IMG/VR virus record: IMGVR_UViG_3300045902_000324 | Location: 1 to 64,000 of that record | Length of the DNA: 64,000 nt | Reading direction: 5' to 3' (one strand) | Origin: a virus | Shown: piece after piece, positions 7,966 to 37,568 of the stretch | How positions within the stretch are numbered: position 1 is the stretch's first letter | Layout: every line of letters starts with the position of its first letter | Notes under the pieces: generated by a model | Told to the model about the DNA's origin: nothing | What the model saw: the letters and a program-made list of their open reading frames with translations, nothing else | The model's database searches: none | Position numbers and translations under genes: made by a program

Positions 7966-8412
7966 ATGCCGAGGAAATTTTCTGACATAGACCCAGGAGT
8001 GCTAACCACAATAACCACGGCGACTATGTTGGGACTAACAGACGAATCTCTGTTAGCGCTACTTCGAGCGCAGCATGGTTCCAGAATCGCGCCGAGAACG
8101 TGGGCATACTGGAAATCAAAACATCCGCAGGTCATGGACGCAATTCAGGACGGATTTGCCAACAGTGAACACATGGCCGCTCGGACGCTGTGGGGGTCTA
8201 TGACCCAGGAGCGAGATCCAGGGTTAGCGTTTAAGGCGGCTGTGCATTGGGAGCGATCGCGGCATGGCCGGCGAGACGTGCAGGAGCAGAAGATCGATAT
8301 CACCAGCAGTGATGGATCGGCTAACACCGTCCAGATCTACATCCCAGACAATAGCCGGGATTCGGTGCGGGCTACGGCGGCACCTCCAGACCTGGACGAT
8401 GACGAAGACTAG
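7966..8412 (+). CDS. Terminase small subunit (putative)
   Basis: HTH-like TWAYWKSKHP, AAVHWER, C-terminal QIYIPDNSRD typical of TerS; class II promoter at 7928. Confidence 0.75.
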   Translation: MPRKFSDIDPGVLTTITTATMLGLTDESLLALLRAQHGSRIAPRTWAYWKSKHPQVMDAIQDGFANSEHMAARTLWGSMTQERDPGLAFKAAVHWERSRHGRRDVQEQKIDITSSDGSANTVQIYIPDNSRDSVRATAAPPDLDDDED

Positions 8413-9252: not shown

Positions 9253-9442
9253 TTTTATATCGATTAGGTTGATTTCTATATCGCAAGCTATGTGCGTCTT
9301 ATAGTCCAGTAAGTTACGGCGGTTCACTGGATGCTTAAAGACAGACGCACCCGCCTATGGCTGGCTGGGCATTGTCTAAGCGGCACATAGCAGGTATGGC
9401 GATGGAAGCAACTGACAAGCTTGGAACTGTGGAGAGAAGCCA

Positions 9443-10231
9443 ATGACCCGTCGGCGGCTATCCGCTCGGTGGCTCGACAAGGCTGGGCGCAACCACTACA
9501 ACATCAACGATTTCTTCCGACCCCCAACGGTAGGCGATTTCGGCATCCCACAGATGGAGCCATGCGCTTACGTACCAAAGCAACTCTTTCCATTCGACGA
9601 AAAGCACAAATGGCGCGAGGGACTGGGCGACTGCATCAGTTTTTTCTGCGACGACTGCGAGTTCGAGAACGTGTGGCTCCGCGCTAACAGAGATCCACAC
9701 ATGCCTGCGGTCATTGAGAAAATCGGATGCACCCTCACGCCCGACTTTAGTCTGTATCGAGACTGGGAGACGGCGGTACTAATCTGGCAAACGTACCGAA
9801 CTCGGTTTATAGGCAGCCTGTGGCAGTCGCTCGGCATTAATACTATCCCTACCGTGTCCTGGGCGACCCCTGGCAGCTACCGATACTGCTTCGACGGACT
9901 CCCTGTGGGGGGCAGTTTTGCGATCGCCACAGTCGAGCTGAACGATGCGAGGAGTGCAGGTATCTTCGTAGACGGCTACCGAGAGTTCCTGCATCGGTGC
10001 CAGCCGGATACAGTGCTGATCTATGGGCAGGGATTCAAGGGGCTGCTTGAGTCAGATGCCGAGCGGGTGGGTGCGCGTGTGGTTCGGTATCGTACTCGAC
10101 TCCACGAACTTCGCGTCAAGCAAGACCTGGCAAAAGCGAAGGCGGAAGAGAATGCGGATCAGCTAGGAGACAACAGCCGAAGCGTGAGGGTCGGGAGCAT
10201 GTCACGCTTTTTGGCGCAAACACAGAGGTGA
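9443..10231 (+). CDS. DUF4417 family protein
   Basis: FGIP, FFCDDCEFENVW, TPDFSLYRD, IPTVSW, CFDGLP, LIYG motifs. Confidence 0.85.
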   Translation: MTRRRLSARWLDKAGRNHYNINDFFRPPTVGDFGIPQMEPCAYVPKQLFPFDEKHKWREGLGDCISFFCDDCEFENVWLRANRDPHMPAVIEKIGCTLTPDFSLYRDWETAVLIWQTYRTRFIGSLWQSLGINTIPTVSWATPGSYRYCFDGLPVGGSFAIATVELNDARSAGIFVDGYREFLHRCQPDTVLIYGQGFKGLLESDAERVGARVVRYRTRLHELRVKQDLAKAKAEENADQLGDNSRSVRVGSMSRFLAQTQR

Positions 10232-10437
10232 AATCTATAACAAATTTTGAAAGATATGGTGCAGATATACAGGCTGGTTTCTTGGAGGCTGCAATCAACC
10301 AATTGGCACCAAGGGGCGATCGCGGTGCGTTAACCCGCAGGGCAAGTCGAGATATATTCACATTATTTCGGGCAGCGTCCCTGACGCCCGATCAATCCTG
10401 TCACGAACCAGCTTCAACGCTCCAACAAACCCAGTAG
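10228..10437 (+). CDS. Hypothetical protein
   Basis: GTGA overlap with the DUF4417 stop codon. Confidence 0.45.
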   Translation: MKSITNFERYGADIQAGFLEAAINQLAPRGDRGALTRRASRDIFTLFRAASLTPDQSCHEPASTLQQTQ

Positions 10438-10499
10438 TAAAAAGAATCATAAGGCAGTTATCAAGACTCACTTGATTTGGCAATTGGGCATAGTCCAGG

Positions 10500-11084
10500 A
10501 TGCGGCACCAAAAGATTCGGCATCACCACCCAGAGAAGCGCGGCGGTTCATCAACTGACGCAGGCGGCTCCGGTACGGGTGGCTCCACATCTCGCATCGC
10601 ACGGCTCAAGCAACTCGCCAAAGAACAGCTCTTGTCAGAGGACATGGCAGTAAACGTAGGCGGCATGGTGGGCAGCATTGTGGGTGGAGCGACTGCCGGC
10701 CCATTGGGATCGCTGGCTGGTGATATTGTTGGCGCGTTAACCGTTCGTCAAGCCGCCACACTTTCATCTGTGGGCATTGAGGCAGCAGACCGGATGCGGA
10801 ACCGACAAGACTTTCAACGCGCATCTCGCGTCAAAAAAGTACAGCTCATGGCGGCAGAGATCCGAAAGATTTACAAAGAGCGTGGGGAGAAGCTGGCGGA
10901 CGATGCCACAGGAGATATATCCGGCTGGGCGATCGGCAACCTGTCAGCGACCGTACTAGGTGCCCTGCCAGTGGTTGGCAAGATTCCGCTGACGGGTGCT
11001 GCCGTAGCGATGCTTACGGTTCCCAAGGTTGTCCAGGCACGGCGCAACTACTCAAATAGAAGACTTATAGCGGCAGGAGCCTAA
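10500..11084 (+). CDS. Glycine-zipper protein with PEKRGG leader
   Basis: MRHQKIRHHHPEKRGG; VGGMVGSIVGGATAGPLGSLAG glycine zipper; second hydrophobic segment. Confidence 0.75.
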   Translation: MRHQKIRHHHPEKRGGSSTDAGGSGTGGSTSRIARLKQLAKEQLLSEDMAVNVGGMVGSIVGGATAGPLGSLAGDIVGALTVRQAATLSSVGIEAADRMRNRQDFQRASRVKKVQLMAAEIRKIYKERGEKLADDATGDISGWAIGNLSATVLGALPVVGKIPLTGAAVAMLTVPKVVQARRNYSNRRLIAAGA

Positions 11085-11085
11085 C

Positions 11086-11616
11086 ATGCGTAACCAAAAA
11101 ATTAGACTGATGTATCCAGAGAAGCGTGGCGGTGGCTCTGGAACTAGAGGGGGTAGCTCAGGGGGCGGCGCTGCGGGTGGCAGTGGTGGGCGTCCTGCAT
11201 CCGCTGCGCCTGCGGCTGCGAGTCGGGCACCCGTCGGGGGTGGGACGGTATCGGCTCCTGCTGCTGCGAGTGCTGCTCCATCCACGAGGGCTACTCGATC
11301 GTCTAATGCGGAACGCATCTCAGGCATAATCAGGAGGCAGGTTACAGGATTCAAAGAGCGTCCTGTGGAAGCCCAGGTAGACGCCCTCAGAGCCGCCATT
11401 AATGATATGAGGGCTGTCCCTGGTAAAGGGCGTATTGGTAGCCCTGAGCGTGCAGCAGGGCAAGACCTGAACACCCTCTATCGGAACGCATCAATCAAGG
11501 CGCGAAACCAACTTGCCAGAACTGTCTCAAGCACTAAACACCCAAACGAAGCCGCGCAGGGTATCCTACGCGACTTAGCAGCTATTCGTAAGAAGGCGGC
11601 ACGCGGCAGGGGTTAG
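11086..11616 (+). CDS. Basic Gly/Ala/Arg-rich protein with PEKRGG leader
   Basis: MRNQKIRLMYPEKRGG; AGGAG RBS. Confidence 0.75.
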   Translation: MRNQKIRLMYPEKRGGGSGTRGGSSGGGAAGGSGGRPASAAPAAASRAPVGGGTVSAPAAASAAPSTRATRSSNAERISGIIRRQVTGFKERPVEAQVDALRAAINDMRAVPGKGRIGSPERAAGQDLNTLYRNASIKARNQLARTVSSTKHPNEAAQGILRDLAAIRKKAARGRG

Positions 11617-12432: not shown

Positions 12433-12866
12433 TTATTTTTTGCCACTTCGCCAGCCCTCCCACTCTGCAATCCACCGCTGTTGCACACTGTCCGGTACAC
12501 CATGACTGCTGGGTGCAAGTTTTCCATCCTTGCGTATCACTGCCTCACAGTGAATTACATGCACCTGATACCCATAGTGCTGAGCCATTTCAATATATCT
12601 TTCTATAAATCCTGTGGAAGCAAACACATTGTGTACGGCAATCGTACGCATTCCGCGCTGCATCCAGTACTTTACAGTTTGTCGCACCCAAGAGTGCGCC
12701 ACACTGTGCGGTATGTCTGGGTTCAGAGTGCCATTTTTTAGGTAGCGCCCAGGATAATCATCAGCCGAAATATCGCGGCTCAACGGGTTCCACCAGGGGC
12801 ATATTTTTTCGCCAATGGTGTCTTTCCTGATCCAGAAACACCTCGAATAACATAAAGAGCTTTCAT
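12433..12866 (-). pseudogene. AAA_33-type P-loop kinase with a frameshift at an A6 run
   Basis: MKALYVIRGVSGSGKT from ATG 12866 (ATGA overlap with upstream gene) is out of frame with SADDY...HNVF...HGVP; the frames join at 12804-12809. Confidence 0.75.
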
Positions 12867-13174: not shown

Positions 13175-13298
13175 TATCCCATCTATGTCGTGGACAAATA
13201 GTCCTAAGTAATTCGATATCTGTATCGTATCCTTTTTAACTGCTAGTCGTCAATTGATACGAGATTGGGCAATATTTCTAACACTTCACGATTGCCCA

Positions 13299-14735
13299 GT
13301 GCCGACCAAACGGAAAATAATTGCTCCGCAGCGTGGCCCGCAGACGGAGTTTCTAACTTGTCCCGCAGACTGCGTATGGGCGGGCGGGTCTGCTGGCGGC
13401 GGCAAAACCTTCAGCACGTTGCTGGATGCGGTTCGCCACATCAACAATCCCAATTACGGCGCAACTATCTTTCGAGCGCAGCTCACTCAAATCACCGTTC
13501 AGGGTGGACTGAAGGACGCATCGCACCAGCTATACCCATACCTGGGCGGACGGTATGCGATCGGCAACTACCGTTGGACATTCCCACAGGGTAGCCGTGT
13601 GGACTTCCGCTATCTAGCCAGCTATGAGGACTGCTTGAAGTGGCAGGGGTCTGAACTACCGGCCATCTATTTCGAGGAACTGTCGCACTGGAAGCACGGC
13701 GACTCTTACTGGTACATGTTCTCGCGGAACCGATCAACCTGCGGCGTGCGCCCGATCATCCGCGCCACGATGAACCCTGCTGACCCCGACTCATGGATCA
13801 CCCAGTTCATCGACTGGTGGATCGGTGACGATGGCTTCATCATCCCGGAGCGCTCCGGCAAGATTCGCTGGTTCATTCGAGCTAACGATGAGTTTGTGTG
13901 GGCGAATGACCCGGACGATTTGCTGCGCTACAACATCCCGCCCAAGTCGTTTACCTTCATTCGCAGCAGTGTTCACTTCAACCAAAAATTGCTCAAGGTT
14001 GACCCAGGCTACCTGGCAAACCTACAAGCCTTGCCGCGCATTGACCGCTTGCGCCTACTGGAGGGCAACTGGAAGATCAAAGCAACTTCCGGTATGGTCT
14101 TCGACCAGACATGGTTCAAATACTGCGACTGGGAAGATCTGCCGTTCAACCCAGCCAAACCGGACAGGAACACTGCGATCGTTCGCTTCTGGGACTTTGC
14201 CGCCACGCAGCAGGACTATCGACCGCCGACCAAAGGAAGCAAGAAGGACGGGCCGTGCTACACCGCAGGCGTGTGGATGGCTTACCACATTCCCAACAAT
14301 ACGGTCTACATCCTGGACGTGAGTCGCAGTCGCCTGGGCCCGGCAAAGCTTGACCAGCATGTGGTGGATACTGCCAGCAATGACGGGTACTTGACCAAGA
14401 TCAGGACTGAGATGGAGCCGGGGTCGAGCGGCATTCGAGACGCCTATCACCTAACCGAGATGCTGCGCGGCTATGACCACGAAGCAGTGTCTCCGGCGGG
14501 TGACAAACTGGTGCGCTGCCGATTGCTGTCAGCGTGGACGGAACAGGGTAGGACGGTGTTGGTACACGCTAGCTGGAATAAACCGTTTGTGGACGAGCTG
14601 CACGGGGTGCCTGACGACAACCCGTACTGGGATCAAACCGACGCTGCCAACGGAGCGTTCGAGGCGCTGTACGACACCATCAGAATGCACTCGCCCACAC
14701 CTGTCTTCAAGACGGCGATCACCGCAGGCATGTAG
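13299..14735 (+). CDS. terL: Terminase large subunit
   Basis: PQRGPQ, Walker A GGSAGGGKT, Walker B IYFEEL, RATMNP, nuclease FWDFA and DQTDA; likely GTG start 13299. Confidence 0.95.
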   Translation: MPTKRKIIAPQRGPQTEFLTCPADCVWAGGSAGGGKTFSTLLDAVRHINNPNYGATIFRAQLTQITVQGGLKDASHQLYPYLGGRYAIGNYRWTFPQGSRVDFRYLASYEDCLKWQGSELPAIYFEELSHWKHGDSYWYMFSRNRSTCGVRPIIRATMNPADPDSWITQFIDWWIGDDGFIIPERSGKIRWFIRANDEFVWANDPDDLLRYNIPPKSFTFIRSSVHFNQKLLKVDPGYLANLQALPRIDRLRLLEGNWKIKATSGMVFDQTWFKYCDWEDLPFNPAKPDRNTAIVRFWDFAATQQDYRPPTKGSKKDGPCYTAGVWMAYHIPNNTVYILDVSRSRLGPAKLDQHVVDTASNDGYLTKIRTEMEPGSSGIRDAYHLTEMLRGYDHEAVSPAGDKLVRCRLLSAWTEQGRTVLVHASWNKPFVDELHGVPDDNPYWDQTDAANGAFEALYDTIRMHSPTPVFKTAITAGM

Positions 14736-14776: not shown

Positions 14777-15544
14777 TCAATCTATATAAGCAGCAATCTG
14801 ACCGACATTCAGCACGGTCGGCATCGCGCAGTCGCCAAACTTTTCACCAAATTCTCGCTCAAACCTGGTGCAAAACCCAGCACCATTGTGGATGGGCGGA
14901 AATCCAATAATTACATTATCTTGCGTGGGCCTGGCTGACTGTACCAGCGTAACGCCGTCCTGCTGGCGGAATAACCCAAGCGATTTCTGCTTTTCGACAA
15001 ACGTTTGAAGTTCCACATATGCGGCATCAGCAGCCTCTCTCGTCTCAGCCTGGCGAATCACCTTCCAGTGTGGCAAGTCATCGGTATTCAGCCAGAAGCT
15101 CATGCGGTTGCGCGGAATGCAGATAGGCAACCTGCCTAGAACGCGATAACGTCCATTCGAGTCGAACCCCTGAACCAGACGGAGCGGAGACATCTGGAAT
15201 CCGACAAACACGCCACAAACAAACTCGCCTGCTAGCCATAGATCGAGCATGGTCTTGAGCCACAGGGCTTGATTCGAGATCTGCGTGTGCCCATGCCTTT
15301 TGACGCCACCTGGCGGGTTGCATTGCACGACTGGAGTCGGGAACCCGTCAGGTGTTACCCAGGATTGGGACAAGCCGTTATCCGCTTCAGTAAAGAACCG
15401 GGCCGCTTCAACTAGCATGTTCGCTGCGTGGCAAGATGCTGGGTCAAGATCAATCGGGCCGCCACACACTGAGCGAGTGCAATCTGATACTGCGGGCGGA
15501 GTGTAAAACTCCACACTTTGTGAGCTGTGCTTTGCGCTGGTCAT
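14777..15544 (-). CDS. Phage DNA N6-adenine methyltransferase-like protein
   Basis: EFYTP, IDLDPAS, DNGLSQSW, CNPPGG (NPPY variant). Confidence 0.8.
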   Translation of the reverse strand: MTSAKHSSQSVEFYTPPAVSDCTRSVCGGPIDLDPASCHAANMLVEAARFFTEADNGLSQSWVTPDGFPTPVVQCNPPGGVKRHGHTQISNQALWLKTMLDLWLAGEFVCGVFVGFQMSPLRLVQGFDSNGRYRVLGRLPICIPRNRMSFWLNTDDLPHWKVIRQAETREAADAAYVELQTFVEKQKSLGLFRQQDGVTLVQSARPTQDNVIIGFPPIHNGAGFCTRFEREFGEKFGDCAMPTVLNVGQIAAYID

Positions 15545-16450: not shown

Positions 16451-18235
16451 GTGAAAAACAAGCGCGGCAAATTTCGGCTAAAGATCGGGGAAAACTACGG
16501 CGGCATCTACGGACGCAACCGACGCACCGAACAGATCGGCTGCAAGCAGGATGCCGCGTATCTAGACGAGACAAGCTGGGACTATTACACAGGAAAGACG
16601 GCCCCGTTCTACTCTGGCCCATTGCCTGCACCTGGCTCAGAAGACTACGCCGAAAAGTACGCAGAGCTTGAGCGAATATATCTGTCTGCCAATCTAATAG
16701 GAGAGTGCGTTCAGAGACACACATCCGCGCTGATTGGCAAGCCGTTCCACTTCACATTGAAGGGCAAGGATGGTCAGGAAATAGACGCTGGGAGGGTCGA
16801 TAAACCATACAGGCTGCTCCAGCAGTGGATCGAACACCAGCGCCAGCAAGTATCTTCCCAAGACTCAGACTGGGGCGACCCGTTTCGGGATGCAGTGATC
16901 CATGCGCTAGTCGATGGTCGTGGCTACCTACGCCTGTGGATGCCACGCCGCTTCCGGCGATCGCCCGACTTCTACAGGCGGATTGCTCTGCACAGCCCGT
17001 TACCTGGTTCCGTTCAGGTAGAGCGAGACAGCGACGGAATGCTTGAGCGCGTCAGCTACACTTTCGAGGGTGGAAGCCAGGAGCAATACTGGTTCGATCC
17101 TGATGAGGAAGGCGACGACCTAGAAGCAACCGACGGCGATGGCGAGTTCGGGGTGCCCAGCGCATCGTCCCCTGCCTACCACGACCTAGTAATCGAATCT
17201 TCCTACAATGCCAACGCAGATCCGTCTACGCCGGACACCACGCAAGTCGATATCTACCCACAGCTAAATGAGCGTTGGACAGTACAGGAGATACGCATCG
17301 ATCCTGTTGTGTGTGAGGATGTGAAGCGAGTGCAGAACTCCTGCAACTTAGCTTTGACCACGCTGAACATCAATATCCTGCTGGCAGGCTATCGCACCAA
17401 ATATTTCACTGGCACTCTTCCCCCAGGCGATTATGTGGACGACCCGGAGCGACCCAACCAGAAAATGTTCGTTCCGAATGGGGCACCATTTGTTACTGGG
17501 CCAAACAAGAACATCTTCCTAGCGGGCATCCCATACGGCGACCCTCGCCAGCCGTCGCTGACCACACCGGGCATGACAATTGAAGACCCTGTAAACGTGG
17601 ACACCTTCGAGCGAACCGTTCAGCTTTACCGCACTCTCATGTACGTGCTATTCGGTCAGGGCTTTTTGCTAAACGCGGGCGATGGGTCTATGTCTGGGGT
17701 CAGCCGCATCCACGTAAAGCAGGATTTTGTAATCTCGCTTGATCGTCACGTAAACATTGTGGAGGCAGCGATCACTGGTGTTCTAGAGTCCGTTATGCGT
17801 CTACTGGACGTAGACGGCGAGTTCGCAGACCTAACCCCTGTGGCACACCTCCGACCGTGGATCGGTAGCCTCCTGCCAGAGGAACGAGACATGATCATTG
17901 CCACGTACAAGGAGGGGTTGATGAGCCGCACAACGGCAATGGCACTACTCGGAGATGTGGATGACACACGGGCAGAATGGGAACTCATGCAAACGGAGCC
18001 ATCCGCGCAGTTCGATAAACTGATGGCTTTGCATGAGAAGGGTGTGATCAGCGACATGACGTTGCTGACCCGTTCCGGGTTATTCGATGAGAAAACCGCT
18101 GCTGATCAGTTGCAAGCCGCAGCAGCGGAGCGGACTGAGAGGATGGAACAGGCTCTATCTATGCAGCAGGCGGCATTACAACCCAGTCCGTTAGACGGCG
18201 ATACAGGCGACGTGTCTACACCCGAAAATGGATAG
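16451..18235 (+). CDS. Portal protein (putative)
   Basis: 594 aa after terL and before MuF; ALVDGRGYLRL, SGVSR, GLMSRTTAM patterns. Confidence 0.75.
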   Translation: MKNKRGKFRLKIGENYGGIYGRNRRTEQIGCKQDAAYLDETSWDYYTGKTAPFYSGPLPAPGSEDYAEKYAELERIYLSANLIGECVQRHTSALIGKPFHFTLKGKDGQEIDAGRVDKPYRLLQQWIEHQRQQVSSQDSDWGDPFRDAVIHALVDGRGYLRLWMPRRFRRSPDFYRRIALHSPLPGSVQVERDSDGMLERVSYTFEGGSQEQYWFDPDEEGDDLEATDGDGEFGVPSASSPAYHDLVIESSYNANADPSTPDTTQVDIYPQLNERWTVQEIRIDPVVCEDVKRVQNSCNLALTTLNINILLAGYRTKYFTGTLPPGDYVDDPERPNQKMFVPNGAPFVTGPNKNIFLAGIPYGDPRQPSLTTPGMTIEDPVNVDTFERTVQLYRTLMYVLFGQGFLLNAGDGSMSGVSRIHVKQDFVISLDRHVNIVEAAITGVLESVMRLLDVDGEFADLTPVAHLRPWIGSLLPEERDMIIATYKEGLMSRTTAMALLGDVDDTRAEWELMQTEPSAQFDKLMALHEKGVISDMTLLTRSGLFDEKTAADQLQAAAAERTERMEQALSMQQAALQPSPLDGDTGDVSTPENG

Positions 18236-19124
18236 GAAACGCACTCTCGCTCTCATTCAATCGCTAGACACCACCCTAGCTGCATTGGAAGCGCCCACAG
18301 TCGAGCGGCTTCAACGTATCTATTTGGCGGCTGGGCAACGGCTGGAAGAAGAACTGACCCGCTCTCGCAACCTATCTGCCACATTGTCCGAACTGGCGCT
18401 GTCAAATCGGCAACGGCAAGTCATCATTCTGGATCAGGTAAAGACGCTCCAAAACTTTTTGACGACACGCGACCGAGAAGCAATCGAGTCGTCATTGAAC
18501 CAAACCATTACAGCCGCTTACTCTAGTTCGGCAGAGTATGGAGTAGACATGCTGGGCGTTGCGGGGTTAAACGCTGTTGTAGCCGCGAGTGTTCCTGTAG
18601 AAGCGATCACTCTAGTTGCCCGCGACGCATCTGCTCGATTGTTCCGGCACACCGAAGATTTTGCCACAAACGCCGCAAATGCTGTGGGCGTAGGACTGGC
18701 TATGGGCAGCAGTATGCAAGGCATCGCCCGATCTATTCAAACTCTTGCAGGCAGCACCGCAGCCCAGGCTAGGGCGATCGCACAAACTGAGGTGATCAAC
18801 GCCAGTGTGGGCGCAGCGCTTGCAACATACGCCGCAGCAGACGTTGATATGTGGGCGCTCGTGGCGACGGCGGACACGAAAACCTGCAAATGGTGCCTGG
18901 GTCGCAACGGTCTGATCTATCGGCTAGGGGACAGTGCACCGCCACTCCATGTCGGTTGCCGATGTTTCACTTTACCCGTATTGGACATCGACGATGTGGC
19001 TTGGCTGCGTGACTTCCGAGAGGCGGCGATCGCCAAATCTTTGGTCAAGCCCACACTGGTGGCGACATACTGGGAGACGAAATCTGGAGCAGGATCACCT
19101 ACGCCCATCCACACCTGGGCATGA
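18228..19124 (+). CDS. MuF-like minor head protein
   Basis: AIAQTE, DTKTCKWC, PPLHVGCRC. Confidence 0.9.
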   Translation: MDRKRTLALIQSLDTTLAALEAPTVERLQRIYLAAGQRLEEELTRSRNLSATLSELALSNRQRQVIILDQVKTLQNFLTTRDREAIESSLNQTITAAYSSSAEYGVDMLGVAGLNAVVAASVPVEAITLVARDASARLFRHTEDFATNAANAVGVGLAMGSSMQGIARSIQTLAGSTAAQARAIAQTEVINASVGAALATYAAADVDMWALVATADTKTCKWCLGRNGLIYRLGDSAPPLHVGCRCFTLPVLDIDDVAWLRDFREAAIAKSLVKPTLVATYWETKSGAGSPTPIHTWA

Positions 19125-20832: not shown

Positions 20833-21576
20833 ATGTCCGATCCCCTTTTCAAGGTCGAAGTCCTCCAGCGCACCGAAAACCCACAGCAGCTTGTGTGGGC
20901 AGCGATGCACCAGGACTACTCAGAGCACTATGTTTATGACGAGGTTGGCTGGGATGGCGGCAATCCTGCACTGACTGAGGACTCGGCAGGAAAGTCTATA
21001 ATCACGCACCTCCTGGCCAGCGATCGCGGGCACTACGGGCCGCTGGAGCATCCACACATTACGCTGAACTGTGGCTATTTCCCACACTCTGTCATGCAGC
21101 AGATCAGGACACATCGTGTGGGGATTTCTTTCGATGTCCAGTCGGGGAGATATACGGGTCAGCGCATTCTAGACTTGGTGCAAGGTGAGCGGACGGTTGA
21201 AGAAGTCTTCTACATCCGTCCCCCAGGCACCTACACCGACCGCAGCGGAAAGAGTTATGAAGTCACACCGGGGCACCGGATTTCTATGCTCCAAAACTGT
21301 GTGACCACAGCGCACTGGTACGCAAACGACATCCGCCGTGGGCTATCCGAGGAGCACGCCCGGAGCACAATCGCATTTGATATCCGCCAGCACTGGGTTA
21401 TGACTGTCAATGCGCGATCGCTCATGCATCTTTTAGATCTGCGCTGGAAAGCAGATGCCCAACTCGAATGCCAATGGATGTGTGACCTAATAGCGCCACA
21501 CTTTCAAGCATGGATGCCAGATATCCACGACTGGTACATGACCAAACGAGCACACAAAGCGAGGCTTTCCCCATGA
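20833..21576 (+). CDS. thyX: FAD-dependent thymidylate synthase
   Basis: HYGPLEH, QIRTHR-x-SFDVQSGRY, LDLR...AQLE. Confidence 0.95.
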   Translation: MSDPLFKVEVLQRTENPQQLVWAAMHQDYSEHYVYDEVGWDGGNPALTEDSAGKSIITHLLASDRGHYGPLEHPHITLNCGYFPHSVMQQIRTHRVGISFDVQSGRYTGQRILDLVQGERTVEEVFYIRPPGTYTDRSGKSYEVTPGHRISMLQNCVTTAHWYANDIRRGLSEEHARSTIAFDIRQHWVMTVNARSLMHLLDLRWKADAQLECQWMCDLIAPHFQAWMPDIHDWYMTKRAHKARLSP

Positions 21577-24792: not shown

Positions 24793-25590
24793 TTATCGCT
24801 TGAGACTCGCCAGCTTTACGGGCAGCGTCTCAAGCAAGTGTGCGATTAGCGCGTTGTTGCAGGGTACGGGGTGCCCGCGCCGCTCCGACTCTATCTCTGC
24901 AAGCCTGTGGATCATGTCCACGACACGAGGGTTCGTGATTCTGAATCGAGCCAGCGTCTTGGTGGAGGTGGTTTCGACCGTCTTCACGGCAGTCTGGTTG
25001 AACAAGTCCAGCAAATCGAGCGAATCTTGCAACTCAGGACTAGGTTCTGGCTCCAACTCGTCTTCCACAACCGGATCAGTCCACGCTTCTAGTGCTGGTT
25101 GACCATCTGTATACCCTTCCAGTGCTGCGATACGTTGCTCCAGACGTGCGATCGCCTCCACAACCTGTGGAAACTCCTGTTGCGGTTCGTGCCAGCCAAG
25201 CGCCTGCTGGATAAACACGCGGGCACCAACGGATGCGAACAGACGGAACCACCGCTGCGCCTGTTCTGTACGATAGCGTCCTGCGTCGAATGCATAGTAT
25301 TCCAAGATGAGCATGACTGCCTTATCAGGAATGCCAGATCCGCAAAATGCACCCCCCTCAAACCCATGCTCTGCAAGAGTTTTAGACAGGCTCGACTCAC
25401 TTAGCGCAACACCCTGAATATGCCGAAGAACGGATGAAGGTTCGACCCCTGCCAGCCGAGCAGCACCGCGAATTGATGCATACGCAACGCCGTCATCTGA
25501 AATACGGAACTCCGAACGATACTGGTCGAACATGTTTGCTACATTGGAATCAATCACTGTGTTTTTCCTTGTGAAACTGCAAGCCTCCAT
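24793..25590 (-). CDS. Antirepressor-like DNA-binding protein
   Basis: AYASIRGAARLAGV, ILEYYAFDAG, GARVFIQQALGW; class I promoter 25608-25636. Confidence 0.6.
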   Translation of the reverse strand: MEACSFTRKNTVIDSNVANMFDQYRSEFRISDDGVAYASIRGAARLAGVEPSSVLRHIQGVALSESSLSKTLAEHGFEGGAFCGSGIPDKAVMLILEYYAFDAGRYRTEQAQRWFRLFASVGARVFIQQALGWHEPQQEFPQVVEAIARLEQRIAALEGYTDGQPALEAWTDPVVEDELEPEPSPELQDSLDLLDLFNQTAVKTVETTSTKTLARFRITNPRVVDMIHRLAEIESERRGHPVPCNNALIAHLLETLPVKLASLKR

Positions 25591-26521: not shown

Positions 26522-27694
26522 ATGTCAAGCGCTGTCAGTTCTTTACTTGAAAACTTGCGGGCAAGAGACGCTTTCTATCGCGTCACCAACATGCCTGCTC
26601 TCCAGTTCGGTCGCCGGAACCGGACATTTCTCATGTCTCGCTTCTTGCCAGAGCGTCCTATTGAGGATCGCGTCATTCGTGAGGAGCGTCTGCAAATCCG
26701 ATCGATCATCGCCCGTGATGCACCCCGCAACGCCCCTGTTACTTTGCGCGGACAAGCGAAAGTTGGTCGCATGACGGCAGAAATGATTGACTCAAACACG
26801 GGGGCCGAGTTCAACGGCGAAATGTTTGAGGGTCTTCAGAAAATGCTGGGGCGCACTGACTCTATGGAGTCTGCTGCGCGATCGCTGCTCGACTTCACCG
26901 AAACGCAAGTGTCGGTGCCGCTGGCAACGCTGCGAGAGAAGTATCGCTGCGATGCCATTGTCAAAGCGCGTATCGTGCGTCGTGGTGACGGTGACTTCTA
27001 CGAAGTTGTGGACTACGACAACCCGGCAGGTACTCGCTTCTCGGTGCCATCTGGTACTGTGGCTGCGCCTGCGGGCTGGCATGACACTGGGTATGACCTA
27101 TACCAAGACATCGTAGGGCTGCGCGATCGCATCAAGGAGGATGAAGGACTGGAGATCTCCGCCATCATCACCACGCAGCGGATGCTGTCGCTCATGAACC
27201 GCAATGACTACACCCAGCTATACGGCGCGGGGGCGACGGTCGAAGCGGGCAAGATCACCAAGGTGGACGTGACGCGGCAAGGGCAGGCATTGTTTGGGGC
27301 GCTTGCATACCATGACTTGCCTGCTGTCCGTGGTGAAAATTTCTTCACCTATGACGGCCGGTACGATGTTGAGGTTCCGGGCGGCACGAGCAGCCTGGTC
27401 GCATCCACAGAGCGATTCATCCCCAACAACGTGTTCATCATGTTGTGTCAGACCGGACGAGACGCTGAGATCGACCTGGGCGATGATGTGGAACCGTTTC
27501 CACTATTCGACACGTTGGGGTACACGGGAATCGGCAAGGTGCTTGGCGAAAATCGTCCCGGTGTGAAAGTTCAGGACTTTCTGGAGGAGCGCCACCCGCC
27601 CCACATTGACTTTGAGGGGGTACAGTGCTGCCTGCCTGTGATCCTGGATGCTAAATACATCTACGTGATCACGATTCCTGATCCGACCCCCTAA
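26522..27694 (+). CDS. Major capsid protein
   Basis: 390 aa; position in the head module; ERFIP and LPVI motifs of gpE-like capsids. Confidence 0.8.
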   Translation: MSSAVSSLLENLRARDAFYRVTNMPALQFGRRNRTFLMSRFLPERPIEDRVIREERLQIRSIIARDAPRNAPVTLRGQAKVGRMTAEMIDSNTGAEFNGEMFEGLQKMLGRTDSMESAARSLLDFTETQVSVPLATLREKYRCDAIVKARIVRRGDGDFYEVVDYDNPAGTRFSVPSGTVAAPAGWHDTGYDLYQDIVGLRDRIKEDEGLEISAIITTQRMLSLMNRNDYTQLYGAGATVEAGKITKVDVTRQGQALFGALAYHDLPAVRGENFFTYDGRYDVEVPGGTSSLVASTERFIPNNVFIMLCQTGRDAEIDLGDDVEPFPLFDTLGYTGIGKVLGENRPGVKVQDFLEERHPPHIDFEGVQCCLPVILDAKYIYVITIPDPTP

Positions 27695-31700: not shown

Positions 31701-34700
31701 GTGGAGAGCATCGGAAAAGCGAGACTTGTAATCGGGGGCGATACCTCAGAGCTTGAGGCAGCACTCGAAAAAATCGAGCAGGTTGGGCGGGCACTTGGCA
31801 GACAAATTGGCGAGGAAATAGCCGCTGGGCTTTCCACAGCCAAGACGCAGGCCGGGCGGGCTGGGGCTGAGGGTGCGGCTGCGGCTGCGGCAGGAATCAA
31901 GTCGAACAGTGATCTAAAAAACGCATTCTCTGGCATGAGTCAGGGTGCGCGGGCTGCGTTTGAGGGTGTTCGCAAGGAAGCCTCGACCACAGCGGCGTCT
32001 GTGGTACGCATGTTCTCTGGATCAAACAGTGCGGCGATCGCCCTGGCAAAAAACTTAAATACGACATTCAGTGGAGCTAAAGGCTTTGCGAAAGACCTGG
32101 GGCTGAGTGCTCAAGCTGCGTCATCCGCAATAGATCGCCTAAAACAGTTGGAGGCGGTCGGCGCGACCACGGCTGACAAATATCGAGTGCTTCGGGACGA
32201 GTTCGGGCTGACTGCTATTCAAATGGGGGCAATCAGCAAGGCGTCGAAGGGCGTTGAGGCAGCTTTAGCGGCTCAAGCTAAGGCGGCGGAATCAGCGGCA
32301 GAGCGAATGGCGGCAGCGCAGGCCCAGGCAGCAGCGGCTCAAGCTACCCGGCAGCAAAACAGCAGCGGCAACGTGGTACAACTCGCCGCAAATACGGGCA
32401 CCAGCTATGGCGGCGCTCAGAAAATGGCAGCAGACTTAGGGCTGACAGCGCAGGCGGCGGCGATCGCCGTCGTTCGTATACAACAGCTTAACGCTGTGGG
32501 AGCGACCACAGAACAGCAGTTCGATGCATTGTCTGACGAGTTAGGGTTGACCCGTACGCAGTTTGATGCGTTGTCTAAGCAGGCGGACAGAACGGGCAAA
32601 ACCATAGTCCAGGCTTTTGCTGCGGCAATTAAGGGCACGGGTTCACTTAAAGACGCGCTGAAGCTATCTGTCTCATCTGCCATGTCCGGCATGAAAGGCG
32701 CACTTCAGTCTGGTATGCAGGGCATCTTTCAAGGGTTCGGGCAAAGCCTGTTTGGTACAATCTCGTCGGTCATCTTGGCTCCATTCAAGATGCTTCAGTC
32801 GGAGATCGGCAACCTCATCTCAGTTGGTTCTATGGCAGAATCCGCTGAGATTGCGTTTGCCACAATGCTCGGCAGTGCTGAGGCAGGTAAGGCGGCACTG
32901 GAAGATCTGATCGACTTCGCTGCATCCACACCGTTCGAGTTGCCCGAAGTCAGAAGTTCCGGCCAGATGCTACTGGCATTCGGCATCGAAGCCGAAAACA
33001 TGATCGAGACTCTGCGCGTTTTGGGCGACGTATCGGCAGGCGTCTCACAGCCGATGGGCGAGATTGCCGAAATCTATGGCAAGGCGAAAGTCCAGGGGCG
33101 ACTGTTTTCCGATGACATCGCGCGGCTAACGGGTCGAGGCATCCCGGTCACTGAGGAACTGGCCAAGCAGTTCGGCGTTGGTACAGATAAAGTCAAGGAG
33201 CTTGTTCAGGCTGGCAAAATCGGGTTTCCTCAGATCGAGAAAGCGTTCGCTTCGATGGCAGGAGAAAGCGGTCAGTTTAATAATCTGATGGCTAAACAAG
33301 CCCAGACGATCGGCGGCAAACTATCGAACCTGGCAGATAACTTCACGAAAATCAGAATCGAGGCATACGATGCGCTCCAACCTGCATTCACGGCGGGACT
33401 TGACTTCATTGCGGAGCTAGTCAGCAGTGTTCAGGGCGTTAACATTTTCAAGCCACTGGCGGCACAAGCTAAGAAGTTTTCAGACCTGCTTGAGAAAAAT
33501 CCGCAGTACGTCAAGGCACTATCGGCTCAGCTAAAGTCTGGGATTTCCACAGTGCTTGAAAACATTGCAAACCTGGCAGAGCAACTGCTGAATTACCTGA
33601 TCGAGAATCCAGATGCAATCTCTGACATGATCGATCGGATCGGGGAACTCGGAAAAGCGCTCGGCACTATCCTTAAGATGGCGGCAGACTTAACGATCGC
33701 GTTCGCCAACGCCGCCAACGCAGTGAGCGGAATAGGAGACAATGCAATCGCTAAGGCAGCGCTGTCCATGACAGGGGTTGGACAGGGCGCCGGGATGATA
33801 GGCGCACTGACCAGCGGATACCAGACAGTGCGGGGCTGGTTCGGGGGTAACCAACAATCTGCTGCAACACCCGTGGGAGCGATTGACCCGACTCAGACTG
33901 ACGGCAGCGACAAAGAGGGGTTGAACAAAGCTCCTGTTCAAGCCAGAGCGGGCGCAACCAAAGCGGCGGCGGCACAAGTCACCGCTGTGGACGAGGCATT
34001 GGCTGAAAAACTACGAGACATCTCCACCAACATATCTGAGTTCTACAACACGCTAAAACGTAATGCCGAAGAACTCGCGCTCACCATCAAGCAAACAGAT
34101 CTGAATAACTCACTGCTGAAAGCTAAGACAGAGCTGACCAAAGCGCTGAGTGGATTTGGGGAGTCATTCTTTGACGATTTCGTGGGTAGGCTGAGCGGGC
34201 TGATTGACAAGTTATTCGAGCCTCTTGAGAATTTTCTGACAGCGCAAGAGAAACTACTGTCTGTCAACACACAGCTCCAAGACTCGCTAAACCGTGGCGC
34301 TGGACTTGCAGCAGGACTCAATGGCGCGATGCTACCGAGCGGTGCGCCGGGTGCGCCTGGTAGCAGCGGCGGCTTTTACTCACCCCTGCAAGGGCGCTCC
34401 GTTCAAGACCTGGTGAACTACCAGGAATCCGCTGGGCAATCCTTCCGAGCAACCAGAAACCGTAGGTCTGGACGTGGACTACACAACGGGATTGACTTTG
34501 ATAGCCGAGTTGGAGGCGGACGCGGCGCACAGGTTGTGGCCATGGAGGGCGGGACTGCATCGATCCGGGCTATCGGCACCAACCAAGCTGGTGAACAGTC
34601 AATGCAGGTAAAAATCCAGTTCACCGACGAAAATGGCAGACCAATCGAGTACCAATACAACCATCTCTCTGAGGCTGCGGTTCAACAAGCTCTCGGACAG

Positions 34701-37568
34701 ACTTCAGGCACAACGCAGGTTAGAGCTGGGCAGCTTATCGGTACGGTCGGCGCGACCGACAACCTATCGTCAGGCGCACACCTCGATGTCAAAATAAAAG
34801 TCGGAGACAACTACGTAGATCCACAGCAGTACATGGCGGCCCGGTCGGGCAGCGGGGGTTACGCCGAAACAGCTGATCGCCGCAGAATCAACATTGGCGC
34901 GGCTTCCAGGGATGCTAGTCCCGCATCAGTCCCGACTGGTTCCAGTCCGGCACCCGCAGCTAGACCGACTGATACGCCTGCTCCTGCGGCATCCAGAGGT
35001 CGATATGTGCCACGAGGCGGAACGCTAAGTAGAGCGGAGCGTGTGCAGTCTGACCCGGATGGCGCTGCGGCAATAACGGCGACAGCCAACAGGCTAGGAT
35101 TACCTGTGGATCAGTTCGCGGCGTTGATGTCGTGGGAGTCAGGCGGATCATTCAACCCAAACGTGATGGGTGGCGACAACAACCAGTACCAAGGACTCAT
35201 CCAGTTCAGCAGGGACAACCAAAACACCTATGGTATCCGGCAGGGGCAAACTATTTCTGAGCAGATGCCCGCGATCGAACGCTACCTGCAAGATAGAGGG
35301 TTCCAGCCGGGACAGCACGACATCCGCCACGCATATTCGGCGGTGCTGGCTGGCAACGCAGACGAGCGGTACTGGAACAGACGAGATAGCAACGGCACGT
35401 CAGTTCGCAATGCTGCGCCAAAATTTCAGCAGGGCGATCACTACGAACGGGCGCAGCAGTTTCTACGAGATAGCGGTGTTCCAGTTGGTTCTGTGACGCA
35501 GGGCGGTGCTGCTCCAGTCATGACAGGTTCATCTGTCGATACCGGGGCCGCGCAGCTTCAGCTCAATTCTGCGATGGATCTAAGTACTCAAAACGCAGCA
35601 CAGATGGCTGGGTCAGTTCGCTCAGAACTAGAGGCACAAAACCTCCTATCTTCTGCTGAGTTCGACGCGCTCATCTCAGATCAGCAGCGGGCACTTAATC
35701 GTGGCGTGGAGTCTGCCCAAGATTCAGCCAGGGGGATTGCGCGATCGCAGGAAGATATTCGGCTTGAGCTACTAGGGAACTCTCCATACGCCGAGTACGT
35801 TCGCCAAACCACACAGCAAAACAGGGCGTTCGAGGATGCCAATCGAGACACGCTCAAAGCTGTGGAGCGTGGTGAGAACAGCATTGGAGTTCTGACTCGT
35901 TCGAGGGAAGTCTTGCAAACGCAGATTCAGCGGGCGCGAGACATGGGAGTAGACTCTGGCAGTATTGCTCGACTGGAATCACTACTGCCTAACATTGATG
36001 AGGCGATCGCCGCCACACAGACAGAGCTGGATCGGATGCGTTCACAGCTTGACGAAGCAGAAGACTTATTCAAGCAGCGCAACGAAATGTTGGAGCGCGA
36101 ATACAAAGCGGAAATGGATGCACGCCGCGCGGCCTCCCGGCAACGAACCGAAAATCTTCAACTCACAATGCGGGCGGCTGAGCTATCGGATGCTGGCAAT
36201 GATGTAGGTGCAGGATTCATCTCTCAGCAGATCAGAGAACGCGACCTGAATCAAAACTACGAAGAGTCCATGCGTCCTCTGCGCGAGGAACTGGAGGTCG
36301 TCAACGCTGAGATCGAAAAGATGCGCGAAGCTGGACTAGCTGTGGACAGCACGGCTGTGACGGTTGCCACAGAGCGGGCAGCGTACTTGGAAGAAATGCT
36401 CGACGGACTTGGCACACAGCGGTCGATCGAGATCGAGTTGAACTATCGAGAGATGGACAACAATTTCAGATCGATGCAGGAGCGTCTATCTAGCGAACGA
36501 GACGAAGCTGCTGCTAACCTGCTCGAAAGTCAGGGTGACGTATTCGGCGCTGCGTCAATCCGCGAGCGTTCCGCCACAACTGCGGAAAATCAGCGATTCT
36601 CTGAACAGATTGCTCAGATCAACTCGTTCGCTGCGTCAGGACGTTATGCGCCAGAAGACATCATGCGTATGCGGACTGAGGCAGAACAGCTTAATTCCAT
36701 CAACCTCCAATCGATTGACGGGCAGTTCAAGGATCTTGGCGAGACAATCGGGGGTATCGCTCAGGGATCGCTAAACAATTTCTTCACATCCATCCTGAAC
36801 GGCAGCAAGTCGGCGGGCGAGGCTTTCAAAGACCTCATCGGCAGTATGCTTTCCCAACTGGCCCAACTGGCAATCAACTCAGCGTTCGCAGACATTTTCG
36901 GCGGGGGGCTGGGCGGCGGCGCGGCTGGCGGTAGCAAAGGTAGCGGCATCTCTGGCATCCTTGGCGCAGTCATGGGCGGACTGGGCGGCGGTGGCGGCGG
37001 CAAAGACTTTGGCGGTACTGTCGCCAGTGTCGCGGCGGGTGGGGGCGGTGGAAAAGGCTGGGGCAGCTTGATCGGTACTGTCGCATCCGCTTTCCTTGGC
37101 GGCATGAAGGACGGCGGTTCTGTGGCAGACACCAGCAGCGCATTTTCCGAGGCACGTAAAAGCCGAGGCGCAATCGGTGACGCACTGCGGCGGGAAGGGC
37201 CGAACTCGATACTGTCAGCGCTCACCCCAGGCGAGGAAGTGCTGGACACAACAGAGGCCGGTATCTATCGACGGATGTTCCCACGGGGTATCCAAGACAC
37301 GCTGGCATCTGGTTTCAACGGTCGCGTAGCCAACTTCAAGCTTGGTGGCACGGTGGGCGGCGGTGGCAAGATGGCGTTAGCTCCATCGATCGCAGGCGGA
37401 GGCGGTGGGGTATCAATCAGCGCCCCAATCAACATGACGCTTGCAGACCGGGGTAAGGGGGACGTTGACCCGGCTGAGTTTCAGCGGGCTGTGGACGCTC
37501 GCTTCCACCAGCTTGTGCAGCAAGAGTCTCGCCCAAATGGTTCACTCAATAAACTAGGACGCCGTTAA
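31701..37568 (+). CDS. Tape measure protein with M23-like peptidase and lysozyme-like domains
   Basis: 1955 aa, Ala-rich; TMLGSAE...FAASTPFEL; HNGID...YNHL...AHLD; LMSWESGGSFNP...GLIQF. Confidence 0.92.
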   Translation: MESIGKARLVIGGDTSELEAALEKIEQVGRALGRQIGEEIAAGLSTAKTQAGRAGAEGAAAAAAGIKSNSDLKNAFSGMSQGARAAFEGVRKEASTTAASVVRMFSGSNSAAIALAKNLNTTFSGAKGFAKDLGLSAQAASSAIDRLKQLEAVGATTADKYRVLRDEFGLTAIQMGAISKASKGVEAALAAQAKAAESAAERMAAAQAQAAAAQATRQQNSSGNVVQLAANTGTSYGGAQKMAADLGLTAQAAAIAVVRIQQLNAVGATTEQQFDALSDELGLTRTQFDALSKQADRTGKTIVQAFAAAIKGTGSLKDALKLSVSSAMSGMKGALQSGMQGIFQGFGQSLFGTISSVILAPFKMLQSEIGNLISVGSMAESAEIAFATMLGSAEAGKAALEDLIDFAASTPFELPEVRSSGQMLLAFGIEAENMIETLRVLGDVSAGVSQPMGEIAEIYGKAKVQGRLFSDDIARLTGRGIPVTEELAKQFGVGTDKVKELVQAGKIGFPQIEKAFASMAGESGQFNNLMAKQAQTIGGKLSNLADNFTKIRIEAYDALQPAFTAGLDFIAELVSSVQGVNIFKPLAAQAKKFSDLLEKNPQYVKALSAQLKSGISTVLENIANLAEQLLNYLIENPDAISDMIDRIGELGKALGTILKMAADLTIAFANAANAVSGIGDNAIAKAALSMTGVGQGAGMIGALTSGYQTVRGWFGGNQQSAATPVGAIDPTQTDGSDKEGLNKAPVQARAGATKAAAAQVTAVDEALAEKLRDISTNISEFYNTLKRNAEELALTIKQTDLNNSLLKAKTELTKALSGFGESFFDDFVGRLSGLIDKLFEPLENFLTAQEKLLSVNTQLQDSLNRGAGLAAGLNGAMLPSGAPGAPGSSGGFYSPLQGRSVQDLVNYQESAGQSFRATRNRRSGRGLHNGIDFDSRVGGGRGAQVVAMEGGTASIRAIGTNQAGEQSMQVKIQFTDENGRPIEYQYNHLSEAAVQQALGQTSGTTQVRAGQLIGTVGATDNLSSGAHLDVKIKVGDNYVDPQQYMAARSGSGGYAETADRRRINIGAASRDASPASVPTGSSPAPAARPTDTPAPAASRGRYVPRGGTLSRAERVQSDPDGAAAITATANRLGLPVDQFAALMSWESGGSFNPNVMGGDNNQYQGLIQFSRDNQNTYGIRQGQTISEQMPAIERYLQDRGFQPGQHDIRHAYSAVLAGNADERYWNRRDSNGTSVRNAAPKFQQGDHYERAQQFLRDSGVPVGSVTQGGAAPVMTGSSVDTGAAQLQLNSAMDLSTQNAAQMAGSVRSELEAQNLLSSAEFDALISDQQRALNRGVESAQDSARGIARSQEDIRLELLGNSPYAEYVRQTTQQNRAFEDANRDTLKAVERGENSIGVLTRSREVLQTQIQRARDMGVDSGSIARLESLLPNIDEAIAATQTELDRMRSQLDEAEDLFKQRNEMLEREYKAEMDARRAASRQRTENLQLTMRAAELSDAGNDVGAGFISQQIRERDLNQNYEESMRPLREELEVVNAEIEKMREAGLAVDSTAVTVATERAAYLEEMLDGLGTQRSIEIELNYREMDNNFRSMQERLSSERDEAAANLLESQGDVFGAASIRERSATTAENQRFSEQIAQINSFAASGRYAPEDIMRMRTEAEQLNSINLQSIDGQFKDLGETIGGIAQGSLNNFFTSILNGSKSAGEAFKDLIGSMLSQLAQLAINSAFADIFGGGLGGGAAGGSKGSGISGILGAVMGGLGGGGGGKDFGGTVASVAAGGGGGKGWGSLIGTVASAFLGGMKDGGSVADTSSAFSEARKSRGAIGDALRREGPNSILSALTPGEEVLDTTEAGIYRRMFPRGIQDTLASGFNGRVANFKLGGTVGGGGKMALAPSIAGGGGGVSISAPINMTLADRGKGDVDPAEFQRAVDARFHQLVQQESRPNGSLNKLGRR

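Follow-up and report, generated by a model that had tools for sequence, protein, structure and literature searches.

What do two otherwise unrelated proteins share when they begin with nearly the same 16 residues and are encoded in tandem downstream of a gene of the DUF4417 family? This question is raised by positions 9,443 to 11,616 of the 64,000 nucleotides analysed here, referred to below as the window, which are the first 64 kb of the 97,462-bp IMG/VR virus record IMGVR_UViG_3300045902_000324 (84% complete). An earlier note on this DNA had proposed that the DUF4417 protein and the two proteins with the common N-terminal leader (the tagged proteins) form an enzyme-plus-tagged-cargo system. 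Comparison with DUF4417 loci of other genomes confirms that the window carries a variant, seen nowhere else as yet, of a module found in many genomes, in which DUF4417 genes are accompanied by genes for proteins with a short N-terminal Arg-Gly tag, and partly supports the interpretation of the module. No paper describing this pairing, or a function of DUF4417, was found in the literature.

Pairing of DUF4417 with MGGRG genes

Two sets of loci, 80 viral contigs and 80 loci from bacterial genomes, were selected by DUF4417 homology alone. An adjacent gene on the same strand with the start codon followed by G-G/S-R-G is present in 73 of the 80 viral and 70 of the 80 bacterial-genome loci (143/160; about 90%), whereas the opposite strand of the same loci, used as a control, gives only 1 and 0 matches, respectively. 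The pairing of DUF4417 with MGGRG genes is real and very strong. The earlier note had mentioned such a link and had proposed that DUF4417 neighbourhoods be checked for a conserved N-terminal motif; these counts bear out the link and supply the motif.

The pairing is also seen in the reverse direction. A DNA pattern for MGGRG[AG]SSG was searched for in IMG/VR, yielding at least 115 loci, in which DUF4417 was scored with a custom-built hidden Markov model (HMM). DUF4417 is present in 96 of the 115 tag-selected loci listed, with the tagged gene directly downstream or upstream of it.

The usual form of the tag is M-G-G-R-G-A/G/S-S-S-G, followed by a Gly/Ser tether, and it is conserved across very different proteins: the tally comprises 329 tagged proteins with 68 body families, one of which is a glutamine-deamidase toxin domain (Gln_amidase, L178). 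Many DUF4417 loci have two or three tandem tagged genes. For example, gp2 of Mycobacterium phage Alma, encoded next after DUF4417, begins with MGGRGGASG, and the product of the gene after DUF4417 in Streptococcus phage A1 begins with MGGRGASSG, as does that of Javan258 if it is read from an unannotated upstream start. In Roseburia phage Jekyll, two genes downstream of DUF4417 carry FFGGRGGSSG and MGGRGASSG. The hosts in which the pairing is found include Actinomycetota, Bacillota, Cyanobacteria, Chloroflexota, and Bacteroidota. The module regularly lies just before the genes of the small and large terminase subunits (terS and terL) or, in cluster A mycobacteriophages, at the left genome end; it is also upstream of the packaging genes in phages A1, Javan258, Jekyll, IPP14, and Rosalind. 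In IPP14 and at many DUF4417 loci, DUF4417 is fused to ParB-N.

Three further features were observed at DUF4417 loci. Firstly, in a minority of cases (L193, L201, and L202 of IMG/VR) the gene after DUF4417 is not a tagged gene but a member of a conserved family of about 255-270 aa that has no Arg-Gly tag, and which may be an alternative partner. Secondly, in the annotation of Alma (L002), 109 nt (1051-1159) belong both to the end of the DUF4417 gene gp1 and to the tagged gp2, and overlaps of 8-118 nt between DUF4417 and the tagged gene are present at several IMG/VR loci; these may reflect translational coupling or mis-set stop or start positions. Thirdly, the chromosomal DUF4417 copies of the cyanobacteria Nostoc sp. 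CHAB 5824 (L326, 3498-4184) and Komarekiella (L327, 3498-3881) appear to be split into at least two open reading frames (ORFs) each, and the MGGRG gene that follows is intact. These copies may be decaying prophage remnants.

The common leader in the window

The window locus has the architecture of the module: DUF4417, two tandem genes on the same strand, a common leader, a Gly/Ser linker, unrelated bodies, and packaging genes nearby. ORF 10500-11084 begins with MRHQKIRHHHPEKRGGSS and ORF 11086-11616 with MRNQKIRLMYPEKRGGGS, and 12 of the 16 leader residues are identical. BLASTP finds no similarity between the two proteins beyond the leader, and by this sequence comparison their bodies are unrelated. 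The two ORFs and their leaders are thus located as the earlier note had given them. Its description of what follows the leader also agrees with the present data, namely a Gly/Ser linker and then a membrane-type Gly-zipper body with two hydrophobic Gly-rich segments in tagged protein 1 (isoelectric point, pI, 10.8) and a very basic body in tagged protein 2 (pI 11.9).

The 48-nt leader sequences differ at 13 nucleotides, which change four codons synonymously and four non-synonymously. The replacements are limited to positions 3 and 8-10, and 4 of the 12 conserved codons are synonymously different. When 13 random substitutions were placed on the leader, at least 12 residues were kept in only 0.1% of 200,000 trials (p ~0.001). 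The synonymous pattern and the outcome of this test point to selection or constraint on the leader peptide and not on its DNA, which is what the earlier note had concluded from the codons. Upstream of the two start codons there is no sequence similarity between the tagged genes, and on this ground, together with the synonymous changes, an RNA-level explanation of the leader was rejected.

The same observations bear on the possibility that the common leader is a functionless by-product of local recombination, or of a 5'-end duplication when a gene was inserted. Such an origin would be in keeping with the 1-nt distance between the genes, a match of just 16 residues, and the presence of only two copies, but it is opposed by the codon pattern and the dissimilar upstream regions. 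It is also opposed by the recurrence of the tag-linker-body design in hundreds of DUF4417 loci, and is very improbable.

The window tag consists of a 13-residue basic extension followed by E-K-R-G-G-(S/G)-S, and has only R-G-G-S-S in common with the canonical tag, as in the GGRGGSS variants. In tagged protein 2, T-R-G-G-S-S is repeated a few residues after the leader. Both proteins begin with M-R-x-Q-K, and there is no alternative start codon beside the RGG core; the leader region of tagged protein 1 is predicted to be disordered. Extension-type tags are present at other DUF4417 loci (LQxF-GGRGG; Jekyll and L186), so that a tag away from the extreme N-terminus has precedent. Beyond the two leaders, neither PEKRGG nor [KR]RGG[GS] is present in any of the six frames of the 97,462-bp record. 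An IMG/VR search with the exact leader pattern gave no match, and a metagenome scan with the relaxed pattern KIRxxxPEKRGG gave 10 chance matches, all of them internal to ORFs and none near DUF4417.

The DUF4417 protein and its fold

The product of gene 9443-10231 matches PF14386 over residues 30-199 with 137.9 bits (cut-off 28.9; E 3.4e-40), and also matches phrog_940. By these profile matches it is confirmed as a true DUF4417 protein, the identity that it had been given in the earlier note. It has no ParB-N domain and stands alone. The protein keeps every invariant column of the family (D71, F74, W78, P100-D101-F102-S103, R119, W140, and others), but 13 columns that are nearly invariant in the family have other residues in it (for example, H66S and Y72C). 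Its closest relatives, at 36-39% identity over the full length, are from cyanobacteria (Nostoc CHAB 5824, Komarekiella, and a metagenome-assembled genome of Synechococcales), which suggests a cyanobacterial host for the window phage; no close relative was found in IMG/VR. All of these cyanobacterial relatives are followed by a canonical MGGRGS(S/A)(S/L)G. From the sequences, the window locus is read as a derived variant, in which the tag and DUF4417 would have diverged together.

A structural model of DUF4417 was built by AlphaFold2 with 49 diverse sequences (pLDDT 86.5, pTM 0.80). The modelled protein is a compact beta/alpha barrel with a long C-terminal helix. In an exhaustive structural comparison with 48,161 chains, the top four matches all belong to the tRNA-guanine transglycosylase (TGT) superfamily, namely archaeosine TGT (Z 10.2), QTRT2 (9.7), DpdA, the DNA preQ0 insertase (9.1), and bacterial TGT (8.3), with 160-188 residues aligned at root mean square deviations of 3.4-6.2 A. 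A Foldseek search of the PDB with the same model returned nothing at E <= 1e-3 and only weak TIM barrels, and a sequence search of the PDB with the DUF4417 profile gave no match. A search of the phage genome with PF01702, the TGT family, also found nothing.

Bodies of the tagged proteins and links to the virion

The body of tagged protein 1, with its two hydrophobic segments resembling Gly-zipper helices, has at least 150 relatives in a full HMMER search. In other proteins, this body is C-terminal on a portal protein (P0005) and on a MuF protein (P0007), follows an LRAT-type domain (P0016), or is situated inside giant tape-measure proteins (P0009, with TMP_3 and M23; P0028; L204). An IMG/VR search with the family returned a single locus, which is again inside a giant tape-measure protein. 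Through these fusions the body is linked to the virion. The tape-measure protein of the window has the same TMP_3 and M23 layout as P0009 but lacks the Gly-zipper module; the window phage therefore encodes the module as a separate gene. Pfam detects neither MuF nor portal nor tape-measure domains in the tagged ORFs of the window, and such fusions are confined to the homologues. Word-indexed homologue searches with the two tagged proteins returned only the proteins themselves. The structure model of tagged protein 1 has a pLDDT of 66. Tagged protein 2 has no homologue in two word-indexed searches, no Pfam match, and no usable Atlas match.

Among stand-alone homologues of the Gly-zipper body, the closest have another motif at the position of the window leader, namely RDxxGRFA (full form Q-P-R-D-x-x-G-R-F-A), which also stands directly ahead of the module in fusion proteins. 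The carriers of RDxxGRFA include one protein that scores as scaffolding, the C-terminus of a portal protein, a MuF protein, and an N-terminal extension of a major head protein, and from these settings the motif would seem to act in the head interior, in addressing or in processing. The window leader is read as a virion address mainly because one and the same body would reach the virion, in different phages, by fusion, behind RDxxGRFA, or behind the leader beside DUF4417.

RDxxGRFA is present in at least 120 IMG/VR loci (L205-L324; also P0003, P0005, P0013, P0021, and P0069), where it is often followed by a poly-Gly or Ala/Pro/Glu-rich linker and lies near the N-terminus of proteins of about 300 aa. 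No paper on this motif was found. The window genome has no RDxxGRF, and a link between RDxxGRFA and DUF4417 was rejected, their co-occurrence being 0 in 120 loci.

A head address of this kind may have no need of DUF4417. In phage T4, the internal proteins IPI, IPII, IPIII, and Alt have an N-terminal capsid-targeting sequence, which is recognised by the scaffolding core and cleaved off by the prohead protease gp21. The window resembles T4 in having unrelated, mostly basic proteins with a short N-terminal peptide in common (in the window, 12/16 identical), which in T4 is the address for head entry and ejection. The difference is that the partner in the window is a DUF4417 barrel at the packaging genes and the core of the tag is Arg-Gly; moreover, the tag is not known to be cleaved by any protease. 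The window leader may thus be a capsid-targeting propeptide that is independent of DUF4417, with the basic proteins docked on the scaffold, the portal, or MuF in the prohead and the leader cut, for instance after the conserved Pro-Glu, while DUF4417 serves another purpose beside the packaging genes. The common leader on unrelated basic proteins, the RDxxGRFA in the leader position of homologues, the lack of DUF4417 from all 120 loci with that motif, and the lack of a canonical MGGRG in the window tag would all suit this explanation. However, Arg-Gly-tagged genes adjoin about 90% of DUF4417 genes, so that the position of an RGGSS-sharing pair directly downstream of DUF4417 is unlikely to be a coincidence, and the head module of the window has no recognisable prohead protease. 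A propeptide of this type is considered somewhat unlikely.

Another possibility is that the tagged proteins are not packaged at all, but are intracellular, toxin-like effectors that DUF4417 activates, neutralises, or localises in the course of host takeover or counter-defence. The toxin domains among canonical tagged bodies (Gln_amidase) are suggestive of such a role, as are the DUF4417 cassettes in bacterial chromosomes, decayed copies included, and the virion mass spectrometry of Str01, in which no tagged protein was reported. On the other hand, fusions of the body of tagged protein 1 to portal, MuF, and tape-measure proteins occur elsewhere, and the module is consistently at the packaging genes. 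Unpackaged effectors are therefore judged an unlikely explanation.

A possible address for virion-delivered cargo

In the reading developed here, the leader serves as an address on virion-delivered cargo, and DUF4417 reads it. The chance that this is correct is considered to be about even. In the module, one to three genes beside DUF4417 encode unrelated, swappable bodies behind a short Arg-Gly tag and a Gly/Ser tether. The DUF4417 barrel, which resembles those in which transglycosylases bind a guanine-like base, would act on the Arg-Gly peptide, exposed as it is, by binding or modifying it, and would mark or load the tagged proteins as cargo around DNA packaging. Both proteins would thereby be packaged, and would leave the virion along with the DNA. 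In the window phage, the tag stands at the head of two proteins, one with the membrane-type Gly-zipper module and one that is helical and very basic, and the MuF-like protein (18228..19124) is a candidate docking partner for head cargo. The gene pairing, the conserved tag, the fold class, and the virion link of one body are observed; the action of DUF4417 on the tag and the packaging of the two proteins are inferred.

Several observations weigh against this reading. The window proteins do not have the canonical M-G-G/S-R-G at the extreme N-terminus, and no second example of the window leader was found in IMG/VR or in the metagenome collection. Since the DUF4417 relatives from Nostoc, Komarekiella, and Synechococcales are all paired with the canonical tag, the window leader could be a separate invention; and since 13 conserved residues are lost, the near-invariant His66 among them, the window DUF4417 might be inactive. 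The Gly-zipper body is encoded at 0 of 282 DUF4417 loci, and no copy of it with a canonical tag was found there. The virion mass spectrometry of Str01, with 12 proteins reported, includes neither a tagged protein nor DUF4417.

The structural argument is also qualified. Unrelated TIM barrels follow the TGT matches at Z 7-8, and hhalign of the 49 DUF4417 sequences against four bacterial TGTs gave a probability of 0.3%. The resemblance of the DUF4417 model to TGT is a fold-level lead and not family membership. An alignment of 'FxCVLTPDFS' of DUF4417 to 'FDCVLPTR' of TGT was rejected, the profile-profile comparison being null.

The enzyme-plus-tagged-cargo proposal of the earlier note therefore stands in part. 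The layout of tandem genes with tag, linker, and unrelated bodies is as proposed, and a cargo role gains support from the virion-linked fusions; the canonical MGGRG is missing from the window.

If the address reading is true, phages of at least five bacterial phyla would use a portable code, consisting of a five-residue tag and one reader gene, for proteins that travel with the DNA. Such a code would explain many of the hypothetical genes beside terminases and would help in the search for injected effectors and toxins, and the tag might be usable for loading foreign proteins into capsids. The contribution of the window is twofold. One of its tagged bodies is joined to portal, MuF, and tape-measure proteins in other phages, which is the clearest virion link found, and its natural tag variant without an N-terminal Gly, together with a DUF4417 that appears to have co-diverged, would narrow what the reader can recognise.

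Comparison with known systems

In type IV CBASS (cyclic oligonucleotide-based antiphage signalling system), the TGT-like Cap10 holds the N-terminus of the CD-NTase, M(G/S)G(G/S)GG, in the former base pocket, and the QueC-like Cap9 attaches a deazaguanine to Gly2 of the CD-NTase (Wassarman et al., bioRxiv 10.1101/2025.04.06.647259). The likeness to the DUF4417 module, whose modelled barrel comes nearest to the TGT fold, lies in the pairing of such a protein with a partner that bears a conserved Gly-rich N-terminal tag. In contrast to CBASS, which is a bacterial defence system, the DUF4417 module belongs to phages; DUF4417 has no sequence relation to TGT, the window phage has no CD-NTase, the tag of the module has an invariant Arg, and the window tags have no free N-terminal Gly. 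A PF06508 search of the 97-kb record (84% complete) for a QueC-like gene gave no match. Because there is no QueC-like gene, no TGT detectable by sequence, and no N-terminal Gly in the tags, the window is not a type IV CBASS. The Cap10 parallel nevertheless raises the possibility, by analogy, that barrels of the transglycosylase type act on Gly-rich protein N-termini in phage and host alike.

A bolder version of this parallel would make DUF4417 a transglycosylase-derived enzyme that joins the Arg-Gly tag covalently to a nucleobase or to phage DNA, and the terminase would package the conjugates, which would be the first to be injected. Such a role is distinctly doubtful. If it were true, the window tags, with no free N-terminal Gly, would imply that it is the arginine of the tag, as a mimic of the guanine edge, that reacts or is recognised, and not the alpha-amine as in CBASS.

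The module may also be compared with the MuF polymorphic toxins and polyvalent proteins, which likewise have swappable effector bodies that are linked to the virion and delivered with the DNA (Iyer et al. 2017, PMC5512222). There, the linkage is a covalent fusion in a single polypeptide, whereas the window has separate tagged genes and a dedicated neighbouring gene. Neither DUF4417 nor the Gly-zipper module is mentioned by Iyer et al. Lastly, DUF4417 has been described as a phage-enriched fusion partner of ParB-N, of the ParB-CTPase fold, in a study that assigned no function to DUF4417 and did not mention tagged neighbours (bioRxiv 10.1101/2025.10.10.680097). The domain in these fusions is the same as that in the window, where it is free of ParB-N.

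Genomic context of the window locus

The features of the locus and of the surrounding region are listed in Table 1. By its gene content the phage, which is uncultured, looks like a siphovirus, and its genome has no DNA similarity to known phages.

Table 1. Positions of the DUF4417 module and of virion genes in the window
Feature	Position	Strand	Remarks
DUF4417 protein, 262 aa	9443..10231	+	PF14386, phrog_940
Spacer between DUF4417 and tagged gene 1, 268 nt	10232..10499	.	Includes ORF 10228-10437, without codon-usage support
Leader of tagged protein 1, residues 1-16, MRHQKIRHHHPEKRGG	10500..10547	+	Followed by Gly/Ser linker to about residue 31
Tagged protein 1, 194 aa, pI 10.8	10500..11084	+	Leader, Gly/Ser linker, helical Gly-zipper body (about 35-187)
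Leader of tagged protein 2, residues 1-16, MRNQKIRLMYPEKRGG	11086..11133	+	Second RGGSS at residues 21-25
Tagged protein 2, 176 aa, pI 11.9	11086..11616	+	Leader, Gly/Ala/Ser linker to about residue 65, helical basic body
Large terminase (TerL)	13254..14735	+	Terminase_6N; phrog_979, E 1.4e-120
MuF-like minor head protein	18228..19124	+	PF04233, phrog_241/595
Major head protein	26522-27694
Tape-measure protein, 1955 aa, TMP_3 and M23	31701..37568	+	Gly-zipper module absent

The two tagged genes are separated by 1 nt, and TerL is encoded 1.6 kb further downstream of the pair. Codon usage favours the annotated frames of DUF4417 and of both tagged genes, that of tagged protein 2 being the best of the six, and gives no support for the small spacer ORF as a coding sequence. 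The locus had been placed by the earlier note between terS and terL. The terL side of this placement holds, whereas the putative terS (ORF 7966-8412) has no match in Pfam and PHROG searches. The same note had marked class II promoters at 9367 and 10486, which are not upheld, as a promoter scan of the window gave no more sites than expected by chance. One weak sigma-70-like site is present in the spacer (10330-10358), and is within chance.

Some neighbouring genes may be mentioned. The terminase gene is flanked on one side by a small ATPase/kinase-like ORF (12433-12783, minus strand; phrog_2071) and on the other by a DNA-methyltransferase-like ORF (14777-15544, minus strand; phrog_111). The head module, between the genes of MuF and the major head protein, includes a thymidylate-synthase-like gene (20833-21576) and a BstA-like gene of the abortive-infection type (24793-25590, minus strand).

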